Part shown: piece after piece, positions 56,759 through 63,807 of the stretch | How the letters are laid out: each line of letters begins with the position of its first letter | How positions within the stretch are numbered: position 1 is the stretch's first letter | Sequence record: OZ035757.1 | Direction: 5' to 3' (one strand) | DNA length: 64,000 nucleotides | DNA from: Felixounavirus LF82P9 | The notes under the pieces: generated by a model | The model's database searches: none | The model's input: only the letters and a program-made list of their open reading frames with translations | Told to the model about the DNA's origin: nothing | Translations under genes and position numbers: made by a program

Positions 56759-58174
56759 ATGAGCGAATTATTTAAACATGCGCACCTTCATGCAGGTCGA
56801 ACTGAAAATGGTGCTGTAAACCATACTTCATCAATGTCTGCTCTTGTGGACTTTTACAAAGCTGCTGGTTCTAGCCGTAGCAATGTAGAAATCTTACCAG
56901 ACTTGTTCTACAAAGCTTTGCATGAGGATGTTGATGTTGCAGTTCGTATTTTACTGCATATGCGAGATGTACGAGAAGGTATGGGTGAGCGTAAAGCTTT
57001 CCGAACTGTTTTACTTCAAGCGATTGAAGATAAAGTTCTAGAGTCTACACAGGTTCTTCGCATTATGGATAAGATTGCAGAGCTTGGTCGCTTTGATGAT
57101 TTCAAAATCTTCGTGGGTACTCGTTTCGAGACAGATGCCTTCAAGCATTTAGAAGCAGCATTACTAGACCCTGCAACAGCAGGTTTGGCAGCTAAGTGGT
57201 TACCACGAGTCAAACCACGTCATAAGCAGTTTGTAAAACGTTTCTGCAAGTTTGCCAACTTGAGTGAGAAAGAGTACCGCACACTGTTGTCTGCACTATC
57301 TGATACAGTTGAGCAAAAAATCTCTGCTAATGAGTTTGGTAAGATTGACTACAGTAAGATTCCTTCACTTGCTGCTGCACGTTACCAAAAACTGTTTAAC
57401 CGTAAAGATGGAGAGCGTTACAAAGCTTACATCGAGTCCTTATCAAAAGGTGAGACTAAGATTAACGCTGGTGCTGTTTACCCATACGATGTGATTAAAT
57501 CTGTCAAGTATGGTAATGCAGATGTTGCTAATGAGCAGTGGAAAGCACTACCAAACTGGATGGCAGAAGGTGAAAACATCTTGTGTATGTCTGATGTATC
57601 AAGTTCAATGTCTTGGGTGAATTTTGGCTCCATTACTGCTCTGGATATTGGTGTATCACTTGCCTTGTATGTAGCAGAACGCAATACAGGTTGCTTTAAG
57701 AATGAGTTAATGGTTTATTCAACAAACCCTCACTTCATCGAACTGAGTGGTGATTTACGAAACCGTCATCGTCAGGTGATGCGACACGTTGAATATGGCT
57801 CAACTAACTTACAAGCAGCTTTTGACCGCATTCTTGAAACAGGTAAAAGAAACAACTTGACTCAGAAAGATATGCCAAGTAAGCTTATCATCTTCTCCGA
57901 TATGGAGTTCAATCAGGTTGATGGAGCTAACGGTCGTACAAACTTTGAAGCAATTCAGAGTAAGTACAAAAAAGCTGGATATGAGATGCCACAACTGGTA
58001 TTCTGGTACTTAGCAAACCGTAATGGTACTTGCGAAGTATCTGTTAAGGATAACGGTGTAGCAATGGTATCAGGGTTCTCTCCAGCCACTTTAAAAGCTC
58101 TGCTTGGTGGTGAGAAGTTTGACCCAATCAGTGTAATGCTCAAAGCAGTAATGATTGACCGTTATATCTGGTAA
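56759..58174 (+). CDS. vWA-domain protein with large N-terminal helical domain (Ro60/TROVE-like architecture)
   Basis: C-terminal region has MIDAS-like D-x-S-x-S (CMSDVSSSM), downstream T and D (LIIFSDMEF); ~280-aa N-terminal domain; directly upstream of tRNA array. Confidence 0.5.
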   Translation: MSELFKHAHLHAGRTENGAVNHTSSMSALVDFYKAAGSSRSNVEILPDLFYKALHEDVDVAVRILLHMRDVREGMGERKAFRTVLLQAIEDKVLESTQVLRIMDKIAELGRFDDFKIFVGTRFETDAFKHLEAALLDPATAGLAAKWLPRVKPRHKQFVKRFCKFANLSEKEYRTLLSALSDTVEQKISANEFGKIDYSKIPSLAAARYQKLFNRKDGERYKAYIESLSKGETKINAGAVYPYDVIKSVKYGNADVANEQWKALPNWMAEGENILCMSDVSSSMSWVNFGSITALDIGVSLALYVAERNTGCFKNELMVYSTNPHFIELSGDLRNRHRQVMRHVEYGSTNLQAAFDRILETGKRNNLTQKDMPSKLIIFSDMEFNQVDGANGRTNFEAIQSKYKKAGYEMPQLVFWYLANRNGTCEVSVKDNGVAMVSGFSPATLKALLGGEKFDPISVMLKAVMIDRYIW

Positions 58175-58192: not shown

Positions 58193-58221
58193 TTGACAAT
58201 GTGTTTAATACCCTTTAATAT
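58193..58221 (+). promoter_or_regulatory. sigma70-like promoter overlapping hairpin
   Basis: TTGACA, 17-nt spacer, TAATAT; -35 lies in loop of stem aagggtatt/aataccctt. Confidence 0.5.
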
Positions 58222-58339
58222 GTTCTACATAGAAGCGAAATGAGAGCTTTTCTAAGATACTGAAAAATATTTTAAAAAAGTTCTTGACAACCACTAAAAA
58301 ATAATGTTAAAGTGGTTACATAGAGTTTGAAAAGTTTAT

Positions 58340-58416
58340 CTCTGTTTAGCTCAGCTTGGTAGAGCGTTCCGTTTGGGGCGGTAAGGCCGGAGGTTCAAGT
58401 CCTCCAACAGAGACCA
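58340..58416 (+). tRNA. tRNA-Pro(TGG)
   Basis: Cloverleaf; acceptor ctctgtt/aacagag; anticodon loop ttTGGgg; T-loop TTCAAGT; CCA encoded. Confidence 0.75.
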
Positions 58417-58423
58417 AATTAAT

Positions 58424-58501
58424 GTTCCAGTAGACAAAATGGTAAAGTCACCACTCTTTCAAAGTGGATATCTGAGGGTTCAAATCCCTTCTGGAACGCC
58501 A
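58424..58501 (+). tRNA. tRNA-Glu(TTC)
   Basis: Acceptor gttccag/ctggaac; anticodon loop ctTTCaa; T-loop TTCAAAT; CCA encoded. Confidence 0.8.
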
Positions 58502-58508
58502 GTTTTGA

Positions 58509-58581
58509 CAGAAGACCAATTACAGCAAACTTAATCTTATTCATCTGAAGGTAAATCGGACAAAGAAGAGATTTGGTCTGG
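58509..58581 (+). other. box-bounded spacer element E1 (candidate small structured RNA)
   Basis: 5' box CAGAAGACCaaTTACAGCAAA, 3' box tGGTCTGGt; AGACC/GGTCT can pair; family recurs at 58676, 59133, 59220. Confidence 0.4.
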
Positions 58582-58592
58582 TCATTAAGAAT

Positions 58593-58669
58593 TGCGGGTA
58601 TAGAGAAAGGGCGTCTCACATGTCTCATTAGCATGGTATCGGCAGGTTCGACTCCTGCACCCGCCTCCA
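58593..58669 (+). tRNA. tRNA-Met-like(CAT), atypical
   Basis: Anticodon loop ctCATta; T-loop TTCGACT; CCA encoded; 1:72 mismatch (U-C) and extra nt before D-stem. Confidence 0.5.
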
Positions 58670-58675
58670 AATTTA

Positions 58676-58741
58676 CAGAAGACCGTTTACAGCAAAATTG
58701 AATGAAATTTTTAGCGGAAAAAATTGAAAGATACGGTCTGG
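58676..58741 (+). other. box-bounded spacer element E2
   Basis: 5' box CAGAAGACCgtTTACAGCAAA, 3' box cGGTCTGGt. Confidence 0.4.
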
Positions 58742-58754
58742 TAATACTAAACAT

Positions 58755-58831
58755 GGTTAGGAAGCACATAAGGTATGTGCGGTCGCCTGTTAAGCGAATG
58801 GCACAGGGTTCGAATCCCTGACTAACCGCCA
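58755..58831 (+). tRNA. tRNA-Asn(GTT)
   Basis: Anticodon loop ctGTTaa; T-loop TTCGAAT; CCA encoded. Confidence 0.8.
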
Positions 58832-58900
58832 AATTTAGGAGAGAAGCGATTGCTCACCGATTTGTAAGGTGCAAGTCCTTAGCCTGAATAGAAATTAAAT

Positions 58901-58988
58901 GTGTCGTTATCCCGTAGATGGTAGCGGTGGGGACTGTAAATCCCTTGTCATTGAGACTCGGTAGGTTCGACTCCTACACGGCACACCA
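58901..58988 (+). tRNA. tRNA-Tyr(GTA)
   Basis: Anticodon loop ctGTAaa; long variable arm; T-loop TTCGACT; CCA encoded. Confidence 0.8.
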
Positions 58989-58993
58989 ATAAA

Positions 58994-59071
58994 GGTTATG
59001 TAGTTTAATTTGGTTAAAATACTCCCCTGTCACGGGAGATGATGAGGGTTCAAATCCCTTCGTAACCGCCA
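58994..59071 (+). tRNA. tRNA-Asp(GTC)
   Basis: Anticodon loop ctGTCac; T-loop TTCAAAT; CCA encoded. Confidence 0.8.
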
Positions 59072-59132
59072 ATTTTGAGAGGGCTATTTAGCCCCTCCCT
59101 TAAAGGGTTCTTACGAGTATCCTTTAAAGGAG

Positions 59133-59206
59133 CAGAAGACCAAATACAGCAAGAACGTATGAAATTTCAAGCCAATTTAATTTTGAAAATTTAAAACTTG
59201 GTCTGG
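59133..59206 (+). other. box-bounded spacer element E3
   Basis: 5' box CAGAAGACCaaaTACAGCAAg, 3' box tGGTCTGGc. Confidence 0.4.
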
Positions 59207-59219
59207 CTCAACAAATTTA

Positions 59220-59351
59220 CAGAAGACCGTTTACAGCAAAACTTAAACAATCTATTTCTCCGGTAAAGAAAAGGCGAAGGTTCGATTCCTTCACTCGGCA
59301 GAGGTCGAGTTGGTGTAATGGTAGCACTTAAGATGATAAACAACGGTCTGG
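59220..59351 (+). other. box-bounded spacer element E4 (contains tRNA-fragment-like segments)
   Basis: 5' box CAGAAGACCgtTTACAGCAAA, 3' box cGGTCTGGt; interior holds T-arm plus 3'-acceptor-like segment without a matching 5' acceptor. Confidence 0.4.
59276..59300 (+). pseudogene. tRNA 3'-half-like remnant (T-arm only)
   Basis: gaagg-TTCGATT-ccttc followed by actcggc; no complementary 5' acceptor strand found within 200 nt upstream. Confidence 0.35.
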
Positions 59352-59500
59352 TAATTATCTTTGTAGATAAGTTATTAAGCTTACCTGTGAGTATGCGACC
59401 ACAAAGGGTGAAAGGGTAAATTCTAGATTTAAACCCAAAAAGGCACATCGCTACAGACCTTAAGCAAGTCTGGGTAGCTTATCTACAAAGATAATTTAAT

Positions 59501-59576
59501 GGAAGTGTAGCAGAATGGTGATGCGGCAGACTTTTAATCTGACAGGCGATGGGTTCGAATCCCTCCACTTCTACCA
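59501..59576 (+). tRNA. tRNA-Lys(TTT)
   Basis: Anticodon loop ctTTTaa; T-loop TTCGAAT; CCA encoded. Confidence 0.8.
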
Positions 59577-59581
59577 AAAAT

Positions 59582-59658
59582 GGTTCAGTCGCAGATAAGG
59601 TAATGCAAGGGTTTCATAAGCCCTATGAATGTGGGTTCGATTCCCACCTGAACCTCCA
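59582..59658 (+). tRNA. tRNA-Met(CAT) (or Ile-lysidine type)
   Basis: Anticodon loop ttCATaa; T-loop TTCGATT; CCA encoded. Confidence 0.75.
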
Positions 59659-59659
59659 A

Positions 59660-59735
59660 GCTGGTATAGTTAAGAAGGTTATAACACTCCCCTGATAAGG
59701 GAACATCGGTGGTTCGATTCCACCTACCAGTACCA
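59660..59735 (+). tRNA. tRNA-Ile(GAT)
   Basis: Anticodon loop ctGATaa; T-loop TTCGATT; CCA encoded. Confidence 0.8.
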
Positions 59736-59750
59736 ATTTCAATAAAGTTG

Positions 59751-59779
59751 TTGACATTGAGATGTGACTACTTTATAGT
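59751..59779 (+). promoter_or_regulatory. sigma70-like promoter inside tRNA array
   Basis: TTGACA, 17-nt spacer, TATAGT. Confidence 0.55.
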
Positions 59780-60010
59780 AACCTTAGTTTTCGTTGCGTA
59801 GCGTCTATTTTGCAAATTTAAAATAAATGCAAACGACAATGTTTTTCTGGCAGTAGCTTGATAGGCTAAACACCAGTGAGGTCTTCCAATCCCTCATCAA
59901 AGAATTTGGCGTACTAGCCCACGGTATGATTAATAAGGTGGGCAACATTCTAAAGGGTATCCCTTATGGGGCTTGGCTTAAATGCAATAAGTACCCTTTA
60001 AAATGTTAAT

Positions 60011-60087
60011 GCACCCTTAGTTCAATTGGATAGAGCAACGGTCTTCTAAATCGTTAGTTACAGGTTCGAATCCTGTAGGGTGTACCA
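60011..60087 (+). tRNA. tRNA-Arg(TCT)
   Basis: Anticodon loop ctTCTaa; T-loop TTCGAAT; CCA encoded. Confidence 0.8.
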
Positions 60088-60229
60088 AATAGTTAGCAGA
60101 TTGCTTAGACGACCTTATCGGGTCTCCGTGTAAGGAGGTGGTCTGTATCTCATGTTTTCCAGAACATGTAAATAATCTGAGAAGGGGCTTGACAGTGTTG
60201 AGATAATACGGTAAGCTTCGAATTGTAGT

Positions 60230-60312
60230 GTGGGACGATGTTAAGACTCTAAGGCATGAGCAACGGCCTCCAAAACCGTTTCAAAGGGGTTCAACTCCTC
60301 CGTCCCATGCCA
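60230..60312 (+). tRNA. tRNA-Trp-like(CCA), atypical
   Basis: Acceptor gtgggac/gtcccat and T-loop TTCAACT clear; anticodon loop ctCCAaa; ~8 extra nt between acceptor and D-stem. Confidence 0.4.
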
Positions 60313-60325
60313 AAGTCTTATTAGG

Positions 60326-60413
60326 GGTAGGTAGCGGCTAATGGCAGCCAAACAGTCTTGAAAACTGTTGCCACTGTAGAGATACGGTGAGGGTTCGACT
60401 CCTTTACTTACCG
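60326..60413 (+). tRNA. tRNA-Ser(TGA)
   Basis: Anticodon loop ctTGAaa; long variable arm; T-loop TTCGACT; CCA not encoded. Confidence 0.8.
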
Positions 60414-60671
60414 CCTAATAAGATTTTACACCGTCCATGCTTGCTCGCATTTTCGGTTTATCCCTCGTGTATTGTCGTACACACTGATAAAGCACCTAGT
60501 AGGTGTCACGGAGAAGAGATAATATCAAGCTCTCCAAAGGTTCTAGTCACCGGATTAAACAAGACTATGCAAAGACCTTTTTAGGTCTTTTTAGAGGGCT
60601 TCTAAGGTTATTACAGCTTGTTGTGGAACCTTGTTGCTTAGGTTCTTAGAAGTTCTCTAAAAAGATTTAAT

Positions 60672-60749
60672 GGGAGATTGACGGTAATTGGTAAACCTAC
60701 CATCCTTAGAAGTTGGTGTTTGAGGGTTCGAATCCCTTGTCTCCTACCA
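60672..60749 (+). tRNA. tRNA with anticodon TAG (Leu by anticodon), short variable arm
   Basis: Acceptor gggagat/gtctcct; anticodon loop ctTAGaa; T-loop TTCGAAT; CCA encoded; A73; anticodon stem has one mismatch. Confidence 0.5.
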
Positions 60750-60756
60750 AATTAAT

Positions 60757-60832
60757 GCAGGTGTAGCAAAATGGTTATGCGGCTGACTCTTAATCAGTAA
60801 GACGATGGGTTCAATTCCCTCCACCTGTACCA
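60757..60832 (+). tRNA. tRNA-Lys(CTT)
   Basis: Anticodon loop ctCTTaa; near-paralogue of tRNA-Lys(TTT); CCA encoded. Confidence 0.75.
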
Positions 60833-60838
60833 AAAAAT

Positions 60839-60914
60839 GGGGTCATAGTTTATATGGTTAAAATTCGAGTTTTGCAAACTTGGGAACTGAGTTCAATTCT
60901 CAGTGACTCCACCA
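60839..60914 (+). tRNA. tRNA-Ala(TGC)
   Basis: Anticodon loop ttTGCaa; G3-U70 wobble pair in acceptor stem; CCA encoded. Confidence 0.8.
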
Positions 60915-60920
60915 ATTAGT

Positions 60921-60995
60921 GCATCCATAGTTTAAACGGGAAAATTACAGTCTTCCAAACTGAGGTTGAGGGTTCGATTCCCTCTGGATGCTCCA
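60921..60995 (+). tRNA. tRNA-Gly(TCC)
   Basis: Anticodon loop ctTCCaa; T-loop TTCGATT; CCA encoded. Confidence 0.8.
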
Positions 60996-61002
60996 AATTA
61001 AT

Positions 61003-61078
61003 GCTCCTATCGTATAATTGGCTATTACGGTTGCCTTGTAAGCAACTTATCAGGGTTCGAATCCTTGTGGGAGCACCA
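61003..61078 (+). tRNA. tRNA-Thr(TGT)
   Basis: Anticodon loop ctTGTaa; perfect anticodon stem; CCA encoded. Confidence 0.8.
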
Positions 61079-61174
61079 ATTCAGAGGTCAAGTGAAAGAC
61101 CGCTTTGAGTCAACTGAAGACCGTAACAAATTCCACGGAGTTGAGTTAGCGGCACAACTTCAGACCTCTTTCAC

Positions 61175-61249
61175 ACTCGCTTAGTTTATATGGTAAAACA
61201 CCACCCTTACAAGATGAAGAAAAAGGTTCAAGTCCTTTAGTGAGTACCA
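61175..61249 (+). tRNA. tRNA-Val-like(TAC)
   Basis: Acceptor, D and T arms good; anticodon loop ctTACaa but anticodon stem only 3 of 5 pairs. Confidence 0.5.
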
Positions 61250-61250
61250 T

Positions 61251-61328
61251 GTTCCAGTATCCCAATTGGCAGAGGATGCAAGCTCAAACCTTGTATTAGT
61301 GACGGTTCGAATCCGTCTTGGAACACCA
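61251..61328 (+). tRNA. tRNA with anticodon CAA (Leu by anticodon), short variable arm
   Basis: Anticodon loop ctCAAac; 3-bp D-stem with long D-loop; 6-nt variable region; A73; CCA encoded. Confidence 0.55.
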
Positions 61329-61333
61329 ATTTT

Positions 61334-61409
61334 GCAGGATTAGTTCAAATGGATAGAGCAACAGTCTACGAAGCTGTTAATAGGGGTTCGAACCCCTTAT
61401 CCTGCACCA
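61334..61409 (+). tRNA. tRNA-Arg(ACG)
   Basis: Anticodon loop ctACGaa; T-loop TTCGAAC; CCA encoded. Confidence 0.8.
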
Positions 61410-61427
61410 GATAAGCAAGAGGAATTT

Positions 61428-61670
61428 ATGCAAACATTAATCGTCGTTGAACATGAAAATTCCAATAGTATTGAGTTTGTAAGGGTTCCCACTATAGATA
61501 CCCACATTTTCTTAAAAGTCGGATGGGAATGCGACCCAATAAAAGTAGAAAGATTTATTGGTCATTGCTTTGGTGGAAGACAACTTAAAAGTGTCAATTT
61601 TGAGACAATGTTACCAGAAAGCTCAGAAACAAGTAATAATGCTTACCTCCTTACGAGGGTTAGACAATGA
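61428..61670 (+). CDS. hypothetical protein inside tRNA array
   Basis: ORF track; starts 18 nt after tRNA-Arg. Confidence 0.4.
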   Translation: MQTLIVVEHENSNSIEFVRVPTIDTHIFLKVGWECDPIKVERFIGHCFGGRQLKSVNFETMLPESSETSNNAYLLTRVRQ

Positions 61671-62224
61671 GATACTTAAAATATGCTTCATGGATTTTCT
61701 TAGCTTTGCTAGAACCACTTGCAGCAATACTAGCAGTTATCTTAGCACCTTTTGTAGTTCCATTCTACAGTGAGAAGAAAGGACACTTACCTTTCGGGTT
61801 CAGATGGATGGAGACATATGACAACCCAATTGATGGTGATGAAGGTCACGTTAAAAGATGGGCTAATATCAGATGGATTGGTAAACTAGGTGTCTACATG
61901 CAAAGAGTCGGATGGCTCTGGAGAAACAAAGCTTATAACTTCTCTTACCATGTATTAGGAAGAGATGTAAAAGATGTTACTAAGTGGAAAGGTAATATCA
62001 ACGTAAGTTCTGACCCTGAAGATAATCAGACAGGTTATCTCCTAATGTGGAACAGTAATGCTTGGGGATTATTCGCTTTTATCCCATCAATTAAAATCTT
62101 TGGTAAACAATTTTACTGGAGAATTTATATTGGATGGAAACTAAAAAGTGTTGTCCCAGAAGAAAGAGCATTCTCAAGGGAAAGAGTTATGTTGGCATTC
62201 TTTATTCATCCACTGAGAAAGTAA
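61667..62224 (+). CDS. Trp-rich membrane protein inside tRNA array
   Basis: N-terminal TM (WIFLALLEPLAAILAVILAPFVV); ATGA overlap with upstream ORF. Confidence 0.45.
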   Translation: MRYLKYASWIFLALLEPLAAILAVILAPFVVPFYSEKKGHLPFGFRWMETYDNPIDGDEGHVKRWANIRWIGKLGVYMQRVGWLWRNKAYNFSYHVLGRDVKDVTKWKGNINVSSDPEDNQTGYLLMWNSNAWGLFAFIPSIKIFGKQFYWRIYIGWKLKSVVPEERAFSRERVMLAFFIHPLRK

Positions 62225-62232
62225 AGATTTAA

Positions 62233-62308
62233 AGGGGATTAGTTTACAAGGTTAAAACCTCGGTCTTTGAAATCGAAGAAGTTGGTTCAATTCCAACATC
62301 CCCCGCCA
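62233..62308 (+). tRNA. tRNA-Gln(TTG)
   Basis: Anticodon loop ctTTGaa; T-loop TTCAATT; A1-C72 mismatch; CCA encoded. Confidence 0.75.
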
Positions 62309-62310
62309 AT

Positions 62311-62389
62311 GCTCCATTACTCCAATTGGCAGAGAGGCCAGACTTAAAATCTGTGTTATGTATCGGTTCGAATCCGATATGGAGTACCA
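62311..62389 (+). tRNA. tRNA with anticodon TAA (Leu by anticodon), short variable arm
   Basis: Anticodon loop ctTAAaa; D-arm paralogous to the CAA tRNA; A73; CCA encoded. Confidence 0.55.
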
Positions 62390-62394
62390 AATTT

Positions 62395-62470
62395 AGCGGC
62401 ATAGCATAACTGGCAATGCAGCAGTCTCTGAAGCTGTCTTATTAAGGTTCAAATCCTTATGCCGCTGCCA
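62395..62470 (+). tRNA. tRNA-Gln(CTG)
   Basis: Anticodon loop ctCTGaa; T-loop TTCAAAT; CCA encoded. Confidence 0.8.
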
Positions 62471-62501
62471 CTTCTAAGGATTCTTACGAGAGTCCTTAAA
62501 T

Positions 62502-62577
62502 GTGGCCTTATCATAAATGGTAATGACCCATGCTGTGAACATGGTCTATACGGGTTCAAATCCCGTAGGTCACCCCA
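62502..62577 (+). tRNA. tRNA-His(GTG)
   Basis: Anticodon loop ctGTGaa; perfect anticodon stem; C73; CCA encoded. Confidence 0.8.
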
Positions 62578-62582
62578 ATTTA

Positions 62583-62659
62583 TAGTCCAAGTAGCTTATA
62601 TGGTTAAAGCGCGTGTCTGAAAAACATGAGAAGAGGGTTCAAATCCCACTGGACTACCA
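62583..62659 (+). tRNA. tRNA-Phe(GAA)
   Basis: Anticodon loop ctGAAaa; D-arm ta-gctt...aagc; acceptor register ambiguous by 2 nt. Confidence 0.65.
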
Positions 62660-62675
62660 ATTTCAAAGGTGCTTA

Positions 62676-63410
62676 ATGAAAGAGATGACAGAACAAGGTA
62701 AGGAGATTTTCAATCTCTTAAAAACCGGTAAAGGGTTTTCTAACCCCCTTATTACTGGTGCAGCAGTTCTCGGTGGAACCGTAGCTGCCTCTACATCACT
62801 TGTAAGCTCTATTAGCTCTGTATCAGACCCTGCAGTAAAGGATAAGCTTGTTGCTGCTGGACTTACAACAGTTCTGCTTAACAGCTTTACCACGAGTCTG
62901 ACAAGCACTACATCAACTACCAAAACACTAACAGATTACGGTCAAAAGTCCATTGATGAGTTTTCATCACGTATGCAGGTAGCAAAAGGTTACTCTAATG
63001 TTATGGGTGCAGCAGGTGAACAAGTTGGCTGTACACCATTTAGTGGTATTATGGGTGTTGCTACAGAGTATGGTCAAAAAGCTATTGATACGATTAACAG
63101 TGCACTAGATAGTGTTAATGGTGTGTTAAGTGACTTACAAGATGCTATTGACAAAGGTCTTGATACTATTTCTGATTTAGCTGAGCAAGCTGTTAGTAAG
63201 ATTAATGAAGGTATTTCAAAAATTACAGCTTATGCAGATGAAGTTGTGCAGATGATTGAAGAAGAAGCTGCTCTTATTGCAGAGTACCTTAAAACGAATA
63301 TCAATGGGTTCTTAGCAGGTATCTTACCAGACTGGTTTGATGATGCTTGTAAAACTGGTGTAATTGACACTATTGCAACACCAGAAATGAAGAACGCATT
63401 ACAGAAATAA
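62676..63410 (+). CDS. Ser/Thr-rich membrane protein inside tRNA array
   Basis: ORF 62613-63410 trimmed to Met after tRNA-Phe; hydrophobic segment then S/T-rich tract; stop 2 nt before tRNA-Ser. Confidence 0.45.
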   Translation: MKEMTEQGKEIFNLLKTGKGFSNPLITGAAVLGGTVAASTSLVSSISSVSDPAVKDKLVAAGLTTVLLNSFTTSLTSTTSTTKTLTDYGQKSIDEFSSRMQVAKGYSNVMGAAGEQVGCTPFSGIMGVATEYGQKAIDTINSALDSVNGVLSDLQDAIDKGLDTISDLAEQAVSKINEGISKITAYADEVVQMIEEEAALIAEYLKTNINGFLAGILPDWFDDACKTGVIDTIATPEMKNALQK

Positions 63411-63412
63411 AT

Positions 63413-63505
63413 GGAAGATTAACCCTAAAAGGTAAGGGAGCAGTTTGCTAAACTGCCAGTAGCTGAGAAATCGGTGTACCAGTTCAAGTCTGGTATCTTC
63501 CTCCA
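63413..63505 (+). tRNA. tRNA-Ser(GCT)
   Basis: Anticodon loop ttGCTaa; long variable arm; perfect acceptor ggaagat/atcttcc; CCA encoded. Confidence 0.85.
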
Positions 63506-63509
63506 ATTT

Positions 63510-63585
63510 GAATCCGTGACAGAAATGGCTATGTGCCTGTCTGCAAAACAGGTTTATAAGGGTTCGAGTCCCTTCGGATTCTCCA
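63510..63585 (+). tRNA. tRNA-Cys(GCA)
   Basis: Anticodon loop ctGCAaa; perfect anticodon stem; CCA encoded. Confidence 0.85.
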
Positions 63586-63621
63586 ATTTATTTTACTCTC
63601 TCTCAATTAAAATAATAATAA

Positions 63622-63681
63622 TGCCCTGCTATAAGTATTCTTCCTTTCGCTACCGAAGAGTATTTTTAGACAGGGCTTTTT
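63622..63681 (+). terminator. rho-independent terminator closing tRNA array
   Basis: Long imperfect hairpin closed by gccctg/cagggc then TTTTTT. Confidence 0.6.
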
Positions 63682-63807
63682 TACAGAGTTATACTTTATA
63701 AGAAGCCTTATACAGTATGTCTCTGACGTACATTGTGGTTTCTCCTTGACGGTCTCTGTACCGTCTTTTTTAAGGGGAAACATGATTAACTATTTGGAGA
63801 AAACATA

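Follow-up and report, generated by a model that had tools for sequence, protein, structure and literature searches.

Three protein-coding genes within the tRNA array of a Felix O1-like phage are probably passengers of a densely packed tRNA operon

Why do protein-coding genes lie inside a phage tRNA array, and does their position there indicate what they do? We addressed this question in Felixounavirus LF82P9 using a window of 64,000 nucleotides (sequence record OZ035757.1), which is 97.5% identical to sequenced Felixounavirus genomes. The three ORFs concerned already carry annotation in those related genomes; across Felix O1-like phages the genes are annotated in hundreds of genomes, and Pfam families of unknown function have been built on two of them.

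ARAGORN identified 26 tRNAs on the + strand between positions 58340 and 63585, and Rfam supported 25 of them, the exception being a tRNA-Met at 58593-58669. The first block comprises 19 tRNAs, from Pro-TGG to Arg-ACG (58340-61409), and is followed by ORF1 (61428-61670, 80 aa) and ORF2 (61667-62224, 185 aa). A second block containing Gln-TTG, Leu-TAA, Gln-CTG, His-GTG and Phe-GAA (62233-62659) precedes ORF3 (62676-63410, 244 aa), after which tRNA-Ser(GCT) and tRNA-Cys(GCA) complete the array (63413-63585). All of these features lie on the + strand. The gaps are 18 nt from tRNA-Arg to ORF1, 8 nt from ORF2 to tRNA-Gln, 16 nt from tRNA-Phe to ORF3 and only 2 nt from ORF3 to tRNA-Ser, so the ARAGORN calls and ORF positions confirmed the original prediction that three ORFs sit inside the array, 2-18 nt from their flanking tRNAs. 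The ORF1 stop and the ORF2 start overlap as ATGA, implying translational coupling, and a Shine-Dalgarno-like sequence lies 5' of each of the three ORFs. When the gaps of the array were scanned with Rfam for Y-RNA-like and other RNAs, only sub-threshold matches were obtained. In Felix O1 and SLAM_phiST56, HNH endonucleases are found between the tRNAs.

Sequence comparison indicates that ORF1, ORF2 and ORF3 are genuine genes under purifying selection and not chance ORFs. All three frames stay open although synonymous divergence from their relatives is saturated, and the dN/dS values against relatives were 0.26-0.49 for ORF1, 0.03-0.11 for ORF2 and approximately 0.10 for ORF3. By eye, none of the products had shown a recognizable motif, but homology searches assigned all three. 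ORF2 matched DUF7338 (PF24027; E = 5e-62, 209.3 bits, cut-off 27), with residues 1-184 aligned to profile positions 1-176 of 180, and ORF3 matched DUF7217 (PF23854; E = 1e-88, 297.3 bits, cut-off 29), with residues 8-243 aligned to positions 2-238 of 238. Both matches are full-length and above the gathering score, and both families are of unknown function. ORF1 is a soluble protein whose sole family match is phrog_14202.

The tRNAs and ORFs plausibly form one apparent transcription unit, extending from promoter-like sites at about 58.2 kb to a terminator at 63623-63682. Two sigma-70-like promoter matches lie on the + strand just 5' of the first tRNA (58193-58313), namely TTGACA-17-TAATAT at 58193-58221 and TTGACA-18-TAAAGT with an extended TG at 58284-58313. 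Because these are consensus matches only, and the region as a whole contains just as many promoter-like sites as expected from shuffles, their role as promoters is one that we infer. At the other end, folding revealed a long hairpin followed by U6 on the + strand (63623-63682), a putative intrinsic terminator closing the operon (dG = -25.4 kcal/mol, z = -5.19); none of 200 shuffles folded as well. Between the first tRNA and this hairpin, a terminator scan of the + strand detected only a weak 5-bp stem within ORF3 and an arm of tRNA-Cys. In Felix O1, transcripts of the orthologous genes 48 and 49 were RT-PCR positive (PMC3185647, Suppl. Table 1). With promoter-like sites, no convincing internal + strand terminator, a strong end hairpin and these RT-PCR results, the proposed co-transcription of the ORFs with the tRNAs is plausible.

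Under such an arrangement, a single long transcript would start at the promoters at about 58.2 kb and end at 63.68 kb, the position of the terminator. Excision of the tRNAs by the processing enzymes of the host (RNase P together with 3' processing) would then free short-leader mRNAs for ORF1-ORF2 and for ORF3, a step that we infer in its entirety. The thrU-tyrU-glyT-thrT-tufB operon of Escherichia coli is a mixed tRNA-mRNA operon, in which a protein gene is co-transcribed with tRNAs and its mRNA is freed by tRNA processing. It resembles the expression mode proposed here, as an analogy only, and differs in that its protein gene lies at the end of the array, whereas the ORFs studied here are internal.

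What, then, accounts for the location of these genes? The original prediction was that genes kept in the tRNA operon are candidates for functions in translation or in countering tRNA-targeting defences such as anticodon nucleases; a role in tRNA metabolism is considered with it here. The tight packing of the ORFs and their probable co-transcription with the tRNAs agree with this reading, as does the fact that DUF7338 genes adjoin tRNAs in two phage families. In addition, RNA- and defence-related functions do occur in the neighbourhood: a Ro60-like gene (56759-58174) directly precedes the array, and gp130, its orthologue in Bas63, acts against a defence system. However, the comparative evidence points elsewhere. 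ORF3 stays beside the terminase gene with or without tRNAs after it, and its Ackermannviridae homologue, a virion protein by mass spectrometry, is encoded apart from tRNAs. ORF1 and ORF2 have been lost without loss of the tRNAs, and the gain or loss of either gene is independent of the other gene and of the adjacent tRNA-Arg. ORF2 is membrane-anchored, with a domain predicted to be periplasmic. Moreover, none of seven distant DUF7338 lineages has a tRNA within the 0.9-6 kb examined on each side, and the tRNA link is likewise missing at all Ackermannviridae DUF7217 loci examined.

Domain searches agreed with this picture. Pfam, NCBIfam, PHROGs and PADLOC detected no RNA-binding, nuclease, nuclease-inhibition, ligase, tRNA-repair or tRNA-modification domain in ORF1-3. 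PADLOC and NCBIfam gave no significant matches, the only signal being a weak resemblance between ORF3 and the tails of ZorA, of coiled-coil type and with scores far under the cut-offs, which we dismissed as compositional. The main text of the PhageMaP study (doi 10.1101/2024.10.10.617714), which covered 4 hosts and 33 defence strains, names counters and triggers among the Bas63 genes and makes no mention there of genes 153 and 159, the counterparts of ORF2 and ORF3; these genes are also unmentioned in the Bas63 cryo-EM paper, and our literature search found no paper naming DUF7338 or DUF7217. Given the independence of ORF3 from the tRNAs, the losses of ORF1 and ORF2, the seven distant lineages and the PADLOC and NCBIfam results, a tie to translation or to tRNA-targeting defences is unsupported, and we regard it as highly improbable.

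Instead, the locus in this Felix O1-like myovirus is probably a tightly packed tRNA operon carrying three unrelated passenger protein genes, which are located here because phage tRNA arrays tolerate insertions and not because their products act on tRNAs. T4-like phages offer a parallel, with ORFs and homing endonucleases interleaved with tRNA genes on the same strand: tRNA.2-tRNA.4 and segB on the map of T4 itself, and gp75-gp77 in S16. In S16, the order is Trna.2/.3/.4-like ORFs, tRNAs, further ORFs and then a DUF7338 gene. Compared with these regions, the present locus is more tightly packed (2-18 nt), its array is much larger (26 tRNAs) and its ORFs have no relationship to tRNA.2-.4 of T4. 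It is commonplace for genes to be interleaved with phage tRNAs, and the finding carries little weight as a discovery; its value is mainly corrective.

The distribution of the genes among relatives differs markedly. ORF1 is a sporadic, lineage-restricted orphan: it is present in 69 phage records, has only 2-3 credible representatives among 1.8 billion clusters, and is absent from the compared loci of Felix O1, Bas63, Mushroom, Moogle, Zyzzx and phiEa21-4. ORF2 is missing from the loci of Sf17, Moogle and phiEa21-4. In Zyzzx it is flanked by other tRNAs while its leader is unchanged. T4-like phages of the RB16, S16 and Slopekvirus types carry homologues at 55-60% identity, positioned within 0.2-1 kb on the 3' side of tRNAs, and roughly 550 phage genomes in all bear a DUF7338 gene. 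Among relatives, tRNA-Arg(ACG), ORF1 and ORF2 occur in five distinct combinations of presence and absence, which makes this site a recombination hotspot. As judged from these sequences, ORF2 is an accessory cassette that moves horizontally, brings its own short leader with a Shine-Dalgarno sequence and is inserted precisely between tRNA ends. The adjacency of DUF7338 to tRNAs recurs in two phage families and at two places within Ounavirinae arrays, which could reflect a functional or regulatory link, such as processing-dependent expression, instead of insertion tolerance. If the reading of a leader plus ORF as a cassette is true, ORF2 mRNA would not arise until RNase P and the 3'-end processing machinery had acted on the tRNA precursor, tying its expression to host tRNA-processing capacity.

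We further analyzed the structural features of ORF2. The description of its product as a Trp-rich membrane protein was borne out, with 5.9% Trp and a single N-terminal TM helix at approximately residues 2-33. This helix contains a near-invariant intramembrane Asp/Glu at residue 16 and an invariant Pro28. The alpha/beta domain C-terminal to it is basic and rich in Trp, and it carries the motifs T-x-D-N-x-x-x-G-D, W-L-W-R-N-x-x-Y and G-W-K-L-K, whose residues include T50, D52, R86, N87 and K158. The flanking charges lean towards N-in (+1.7 on the N side versus -2.7 over the first 27 post-helix residues), although the C-terminal domain as a whole is strongly basic (mean +8.8); the predicted topology is N-in/C-out. 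No PDB chain matched the predicted fold structurally, a comparison that takes in holin T if the library includes a chain of it. The models describe a protein that crosses the membrane once and whose fold, predicted with confidence, has no relative among solved structures. The site of action of ORF2 would be the cell envelope, the C-terminal domain facing the periplasm, and its likeliest roles are in the timing of lysis or in superinfection exclusion.

A specific version of the first role is that ORF2 is the phage's holin, a class III, T4 T-like protein with one TM segment (N-in, C-out) and a large periplasmic domain, opening the inner membrane for a soluble endolysin. The predicted topology is like that of T4 T: one TM helix at the N terminus and, C-terminal to it, a domain of about 150 aa predicted to be extracytoplasmic, with flank charges favouring N-in. 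The ORF2 homologue is annotated as 'holin' in Mushroom, SLAM_phiST56, HP1 and DR094, the Mushroom paper describes a class-III holin, and Felix O1 has neither an assigned holin nor a lysis cassette. Genomic context in other phages adds to this: the DUF7338 gene of Aeromonas phage PX29 is found where T4 has 't', between a gene-38-like gene and asiA and directly 5' of a PF00959 lysozyme gene and a gene for an 81-aa protein with a TM helix and a coiled coil, a lysis-cassette-like arrangement, and the S16 gene precedes lysozyme gene e by about 900 bp. Lysozyme adjacency was found only in PX29.

However, ORF2 has neither sequence nor fold similarity to T4 holin T, and its N-terminal cytoplasmic segment is much shorter. 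It gave no Pfam match to holin T (PF11031) at E <= 1, while the positive controls scored 395 bits (T4 T) and 183 bits (RB16 t), and the hhalign family alignment against T4 T had a probability of 0.09%; at this level of about 0.1%, homology to holin T was ruled out. RB16 carries a true PF11031 holin T in the canonical slot alongside its DUF7338 gene. Contrary to what would be expected of a lysis-timing gene, ORF2 is dispensable in related phages, being missing from the lytic relatives Moogle, Sf17 and phiEa21-4, and is not beside the endolysin gene in Felixounavirus. The 'putative holin' of Moogle is a different gene; 91%-identical orthologues of this gene and of its small membrane-protein neighbour lie in the window at 733-1101 and 538-729, respectively, and are other lysis candidates conserved at 538-1101. 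It would also be unusual for a holin to have a globular domain in which about 15 polar or aromatic residues are invariant, together with a dN/dS of 0.03-0.1, and the gene is apparently transcribed with the tRNAs from sigma-70-like promoters and not in a late lysis context. The 'holin' label of DUF7338, which derives from topology alone, is spreading through GenBank in conflict with the comparative evidence, and we consider it unlikely that ORF2 is the holin.

A broader proposal is that DUF7338 is a novel type of envelope effector that spans the membrane once, has a fold without precedent and conserves an acidic residue within the membrane, serving either a T-analogous holin or lysis-timing role or superinfection exclusion, its leader plus ORF cassette perhaps spreading among virulent enterobacterial myoviruses and targeting tRNA gene junctions. 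Taken as a whole, this is less probable still. T4 Imm and Sp, small membrane proteins for superinfection exclusion, serve as a lead here. They are like ORF2 in being accessory, non-essential, envelope-located proteins of virulent myoviruses, which is a functional analogy only. Should ORF2 turn out to be an envelope effector of novel fold, the biology of phage lysis or exclusion would gain modestly from it.

ORF3 presents a different case. Conservation in related arrays fails for ORF1 and ORF2 but holds for ORF3, which was present in all 10 Ounavirinae loci examined, always just 5' of the terminase operon with its small ORF and terL. In Erwinia phage phiEa21-4 and Hafnia phage Zyzzx, ORF3 comes after the last tRNA, and tRNA-Ser(GCT) and tRNA-Cys are lacking. 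ORF3 therefore looks embedded only because these two tRNAs lie 3' of it in Felixounavirus and Mooglevirus. The DUF7217 family is confined to Ounavirinae and Ackermannviridae.

The product of ORF3 had been described as a Ser/Thr-rich membrane protein. It is Ser/Thr-rich (19.7%), as well as acidic and with two invariant Cys. That it resides in a membrane is doubtful: a single segment shows weak hydrophobicity (Kyte-Doolittle 1.62), the N-terminal helix is moderately hydrophobic, and the model is an all-helical bundle (pLDDT 92.9). A Foldseek search of the PDB returned only generic helical bundles (E >= 0.2), and the DUF7217 profile had no match among PDB chains apart from 'Glr2806', which was marginal and partial (E = 9e-4) and in which no stretch passed. 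PHROG matches to tape measure proteins were weak and partial (E = 2e-5 to 8e-3). [quoted passage not shown]

A lead to the function of ORF3 comes from Ackermannviridae. Their DUF7217 proteins, labelled 'structural protein' in Kuttervirus, share its length (242-246 aa), a full-length alignment and 20 invariant positions, including the two Cys, while identity is only about 26-31%. Unlike in Ounavirinae, where the gene lies at the junction of the tRNA array and the terminase, in Ackermannviridae it is flanked by the major capsid gene and gp3/uvsY, and tRNAs are absent from the vicinity. In LIMEstone1, the homologue ORF129 was listed as a 'confirmed structural protein' by MS of purified virions (25.03 kDa, 2 peptides, 18% coverage); the gene has a predicted late promoter and is two genes from gp3. 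The virion reading of ORF3 goes back to this one two-peptide identification, in a homologue about 28% identical. ORF3 may be a low-copy or disordered virion protein, possibly ejected, a role that would fit its weak tape-measure-like helical similarity and hydrophobic N-terminal helix. Targeted study of DUF7217 is merited, as a virion protein that is missing from structural models, may be ejected and is common to Ounavirinae and Ackermannviridae.

Transcription from an early-type promoter together with tRNAs is odd for a virion protein. Alternatively, ORF3 may not be a virion component in Felixounaviruses but an intracellular or membrane-associated infection protein, the LIMEstone1 detection representing co-purifying contamination. 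The Felix O1 orthologue (gene 49) is not among the proteins of the whole-phage shotgun MS, and DUF7217 homologues were found neither among deposited Ounavirinae virion chains, where the Felix O1 portal used as a control found 9mt4 and 9c39, nor among the modelled virion chains of Bas63 or Sf14; the wV8 and phiD3 proteomes are too shallow to bear on ORF3. Several records annotate the family as 'putative membrane protein', and the table that lists the two LIMEstone1 peptides also contains non-structural ligase, PhoH, gp44 and rIIB at low coverage. However, ORF129 reached 18% coverage, as against less than 5% for these suspected contaminants, and the LIMEstone1 paper states that all unknown structural proteins there have ViI structural counterparts. 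The predicted late promoter and the nearby gp3 and major capsid genes likewise suit a structural protein, as does the fixed position of ORF3 at the head of the packaging and morphogenesis module in Ounavirinae, and cryo-EM is blind to internal, disordered or ejected proteins. We therefore regard a non-virion role as possible but doubtful, and retain a virion protein as the preferred reading. The Felix O1 paper also reported 'Gp49' as a structural protein from a gel band, a claim that is internally inconsistent: gene 49 encodes 244 aa, which suits the 51 kDa mass of the band poorly, and gp63 (450 aa) fits it better.

The entire stretch from 58300 to 63700 aligned with Felixounavirus genomes at 97.5% identity, and 224 phage records span at least 80% of it, which makes the window a piece of a Felix O1-like myovirus (Ounavirinae). 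From 58340 to 63585, ARAGORN called 26 + strand tRNA genes, 25 of which were confirmed by Rfam. As the original prediction had stated, three ORFs lie inside this array: ORF1 (61428-61670, 80 aa), ORF2 (61667-62224, 185 aa) and ORF3 (62676-63410, 244 aa), with gaps of 18, 8, 16 and 2 nt between them and the flanking tRNAs. ORF1 and ORF2 overlap by ATGA, and a Shine-Dalgarno-like sequence precedes each of the three. They are genuine coding genes, with frames intact even at saturated synonymous sites and pairwise dN/dS values against relatives of 0.03-0.11 for ORF2, about 0.10 for ORF3 and 0.26-0.49 for ORF1. Annotated relatives already carry all three as called genes, mostly labeled "hypothetical protein", with ORF2 sometimes labeled "holin" and ORF3 "putative membrane protein". 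A longer ORF3 with a GTG start, from 62613, would enter tRNA-Phe and lacks support in the family alignment.

The description of ORF2 as a Trp-rich membrane protein agrees with its composition (5.9% Trp, a single N-terminal hydrophobic helix). ORF3 is Ser/Thr-rich as described (19.7% Ser+Thr), but its membrane character is doubtful, with just one weakly hydrophobic segment. The proteins had also been said to lack any recognizable motif; in fact, the Pfam families DUF7338 and DUF7217 include ORF2 and ORF3, respectively, while ORF1 matched phrog_14202 only.

Sigma-70-like promoter matches were found ahead of the first tRNA (58193-58221 and 58284-58313), and a long hairpin followed by U6 closes the array (hairpin 63623-63676; fold -25.4 kcal/mol, z = -5.2). 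A + strand scan from the first tRNA to this hairpin gave just two candidates: the tRNA-Cys arm and, within ORF3, a weak stem of 5 bp. In Felix O1, genes 48 and 49, the orthologues of ORF2 and ORF3, were both positive by RT-PCR (PMC3185647, Suppl. Table 1). Given the promoter matches, the end hairpin, the lack of a convincing internal stem and the Felix O1 RT-PCR, the proposed co-transcription of the ORFs with the tRNAs is plausible. By analogy with mixed tRNA-mRNA operons, tRNA processing would free the ORF mRNAs.

We further compared the region of tRNA-Arg(ACG), ORF1 and ORF2 (61334-62232) with the equivalent positions in five close relatives (L010, L014, L016, L017 and L027). Presence and absence of the three elements, in that order, occurred in five combinations (+++, +-+, --+, ++- and +--), which mark this spot as a recombination hotspot. 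The indel edges coincide with tRNA ends, and tRNA-Gln directly follows the stop codon of ORF1 in Sf17. ORF1 and ORF2 occur together in this window, E9, SLAM_phiST56, wV8 and HP1; Sf17 has ORF1 without ORF2, and Felix O1, Bas63, Mushroom and Zyzzx have ORF2 without ORF1. HNH endonuclease genes lie between tRNAs in Felix O1 and SLAM_phiST56. ORF1 was found in just 69 phage records, with 2-3 credible representatives among 1.8 billion clusters, and had no match in Pfam, NCBIfam or PADLOC.

ORF2 is an accessory gene, missing from Sf17, Moogle and phiEa21-4. Instead of tRNA-Arg and tRNA-Gln, its neighbors in Zyzzx are tRNA-Asp and tRNA-Ser(TGA), but the TTAAAGAGG-type leader of 16-20 nt is retained. 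RB16-like, S16-like and Slopekvirus T4-like phages encode DUF7338 homologues with 55-60% identity, in each case downstream of tRNA genes at a distance of 0.2-1 kb. Seven lineages further removed (Aeromonas phage PX29, a contig with phiKZ-like neighbors, three other metagenomic phage contigs, phiT5282EW and jumbo phage FBKp24) showed no tRNA in the 0.9-6 kb of sequence covered per side. The tRNA neighborhood is therefore a trait of one enterobacterial exchange group, not of the DUF7338 family. In a metagenomic protein (P0035, 172 aa, on a 1161-bp contig), the N-terminal half of DUF7338, comprising the TM helix and first motif, is fused to PF21882 ("Gp53-like_C"), a putative C-terminal domain of tail fibres. 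The fusion is either an assembly chimera or a genuine domain swap; the latter would suggest that the C-terminal half of DUF7338 is a replaceable binding module.

The "holin" label of ORF2 originates from the Mushroom genome record (CPT_Mushroom87), whose announcement describes "a class-III holin (1 TMD; N-in, C-out)" (PMC4392139), a call on topology alone. That ORF2 is a holin appears unlikely. Its predicted topology is T-like, and in PX29 (L008 3411-4682) DUF7338 occupies the T4 't' slot between a gene-38-like gene and asiA; a PF00959 lysozyme and an 81-aa protein that combines a TM helix with a coiled coil follow directly. However, ORF2, whose predicted fold is an orphan, has no sequence or fold relation to holin T and is missing from lytic relatives, and RB16 carries, besides DUF7338, a true PF11031 holin T at the canonical position. 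The "putative holin" of Moogle (gp54) and its small membrane neighbor (gp55), located just downstream of the tail-fibre gene, are other genes, each with a 91%-identical orthologue on the + strand of the window. Moogle gp55 (64 aa; orthologue at 538-729) is holin-like with one TM helix; gp54 (123 aa; orthologue at 733-1101) has an N-terminal TM helix and a coiled coil and looks more like an i-spanin. Both orthologues are alternative lysis-gene candidates of the phage. For ORF2, we prefer the broader reading of an accessory envelope-acting protein, which may have a role in lysis timing or superinfection exclusion.

ORF3 was found in all 10 Ounavirinae loci examined, with identity as low as 45% (Erwinia phiEa21-4) and 21% (Hafnia Zyzzx); a small ORF and the large terminase always come directly after it. 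Its conservation reflects packaging-module synteny. It comes after the last tRNA in phiEa21-4 and Zyzzx, and its embedding in Felixounavirus and Mooglevirus is due solely to tRNA-Ser(GCT) and tRNA-Cys on its downstream side. Outside Ounavirinae, DUF7217 is confined to Ackermannviridae, as proteins of 242-246 aa with no domain fusions; their gene has no tRNAs around it and is located between the major capsid gene and gp3/uvsY.

[quoted passage not shown] The Felix O1 paper also lists "Gp49" as structural on the basis of a 51 kDa band, which it suggests may be the sheath protein, but its own gene table gives gene 49 (L010 8772-9506) as 244 aa with a pI of 4.3 (PMC3185647). Gene 49 is absent from the shotgun MS list of that paper, and gp63 (450 aa, "major structural protein") suits the band. 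Given this size mismatch and the fit of gp63, the Gp49 entry in the abstract is probably a numbering error. Of at least 23 virion gene products, the Bas63 cryo-EM paper modeled 22, and it leaves the ORF3 orthologue, gp159, unmentioned. No DUF7217 chain was found in the PDB, where a Felix O1 portal search does retrieve the Ounavirinae virion entries 9mt4 and 9c39. AlphaFold predicted an all-helical bundle for ORF3 (best pLDDT 92.9, the other four models 73-80) with no significant structural neighbors, and weak PHROG similarity was found to tape-measure proteins and the C-terminal half of phrog_289. We infer that ORF3 is part of the virion, where it would be low-copy, disordered or internal, and may be ejected.

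The link to translation or tRNA-targeting defence that the original prediction proposed found no support for any of the three; ORF1 and ORF2 are not conserved in related arrays, and ORF3 is conserved by its packaging-module synteny. The gene directly 5' of the array (56759-58174, +; 471 aa, Pfam DUF2828 and DUF7788, labeled "RNA-binding protein") fits that idea better and is the only neighbor with an RNA or defence connection. It is the orthologue of Bas63 gp130, which PhageMaP reported as Ro60-like and countering the ppl defence system; its authors speculated that some "tRNAs" may be Y-RNA-like partners. The genes, families and arrangement are already in public annotation, and protein genes amid phage tRNAs are a familiar feature, seen for example at the S16 locus.

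Several minor features were observed within the array. The ARAGORN tRNA-Met(CAT) at 58593-58669 (+) was not reported by the Rfam tRNA model at E<=1, and its Felix O1 orthologue has a low Cove score of 28.9 (PMC3185647); it may be an atypical or degenerate tRNA. A sub-threshold "tmRNA_permuted" match (59677-59861, +; 29 bits against a gathering score of 47) begins in tRNA-Ile and contains the best promoter-like site of the region (59751-59779, 11/12 matches); for Felix O1 and Moogle, genome announcements report an ssrA called by ARAGORN. Two of the larger gaps hold weak, partial tRNA-like remnants, at 59243-59293 and 60232-60306.

In the PX29 record, the gene name 't' is placed on the lysozyme. 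Some public records also contain annotation errors. In wV8, the call of gene 52 covers the ORF1 region and tRNA-Arg on the wrong strand (L012 3440-3715), and the start of gene 54 reaches into tRNA-Phe (L012 4722-5483). The Mushroom and Moogle records (L016 and L017) give ORFs and tRNAs opposite strands, but by ARAGORN the homologous tRNAs share the strand of the ORFs. Finally, "Staphylococcus phage SA1" (GU169904.1, 61142-61381) contains ORF1 at 97.5% identity and "Campylobacter phage A132" (MG065664.1, 3381-4082) a DUF7217 gene; these records, named for unrelated hosts yet holding Felixounavirus sequence, are probably contaminated or mislabeled.
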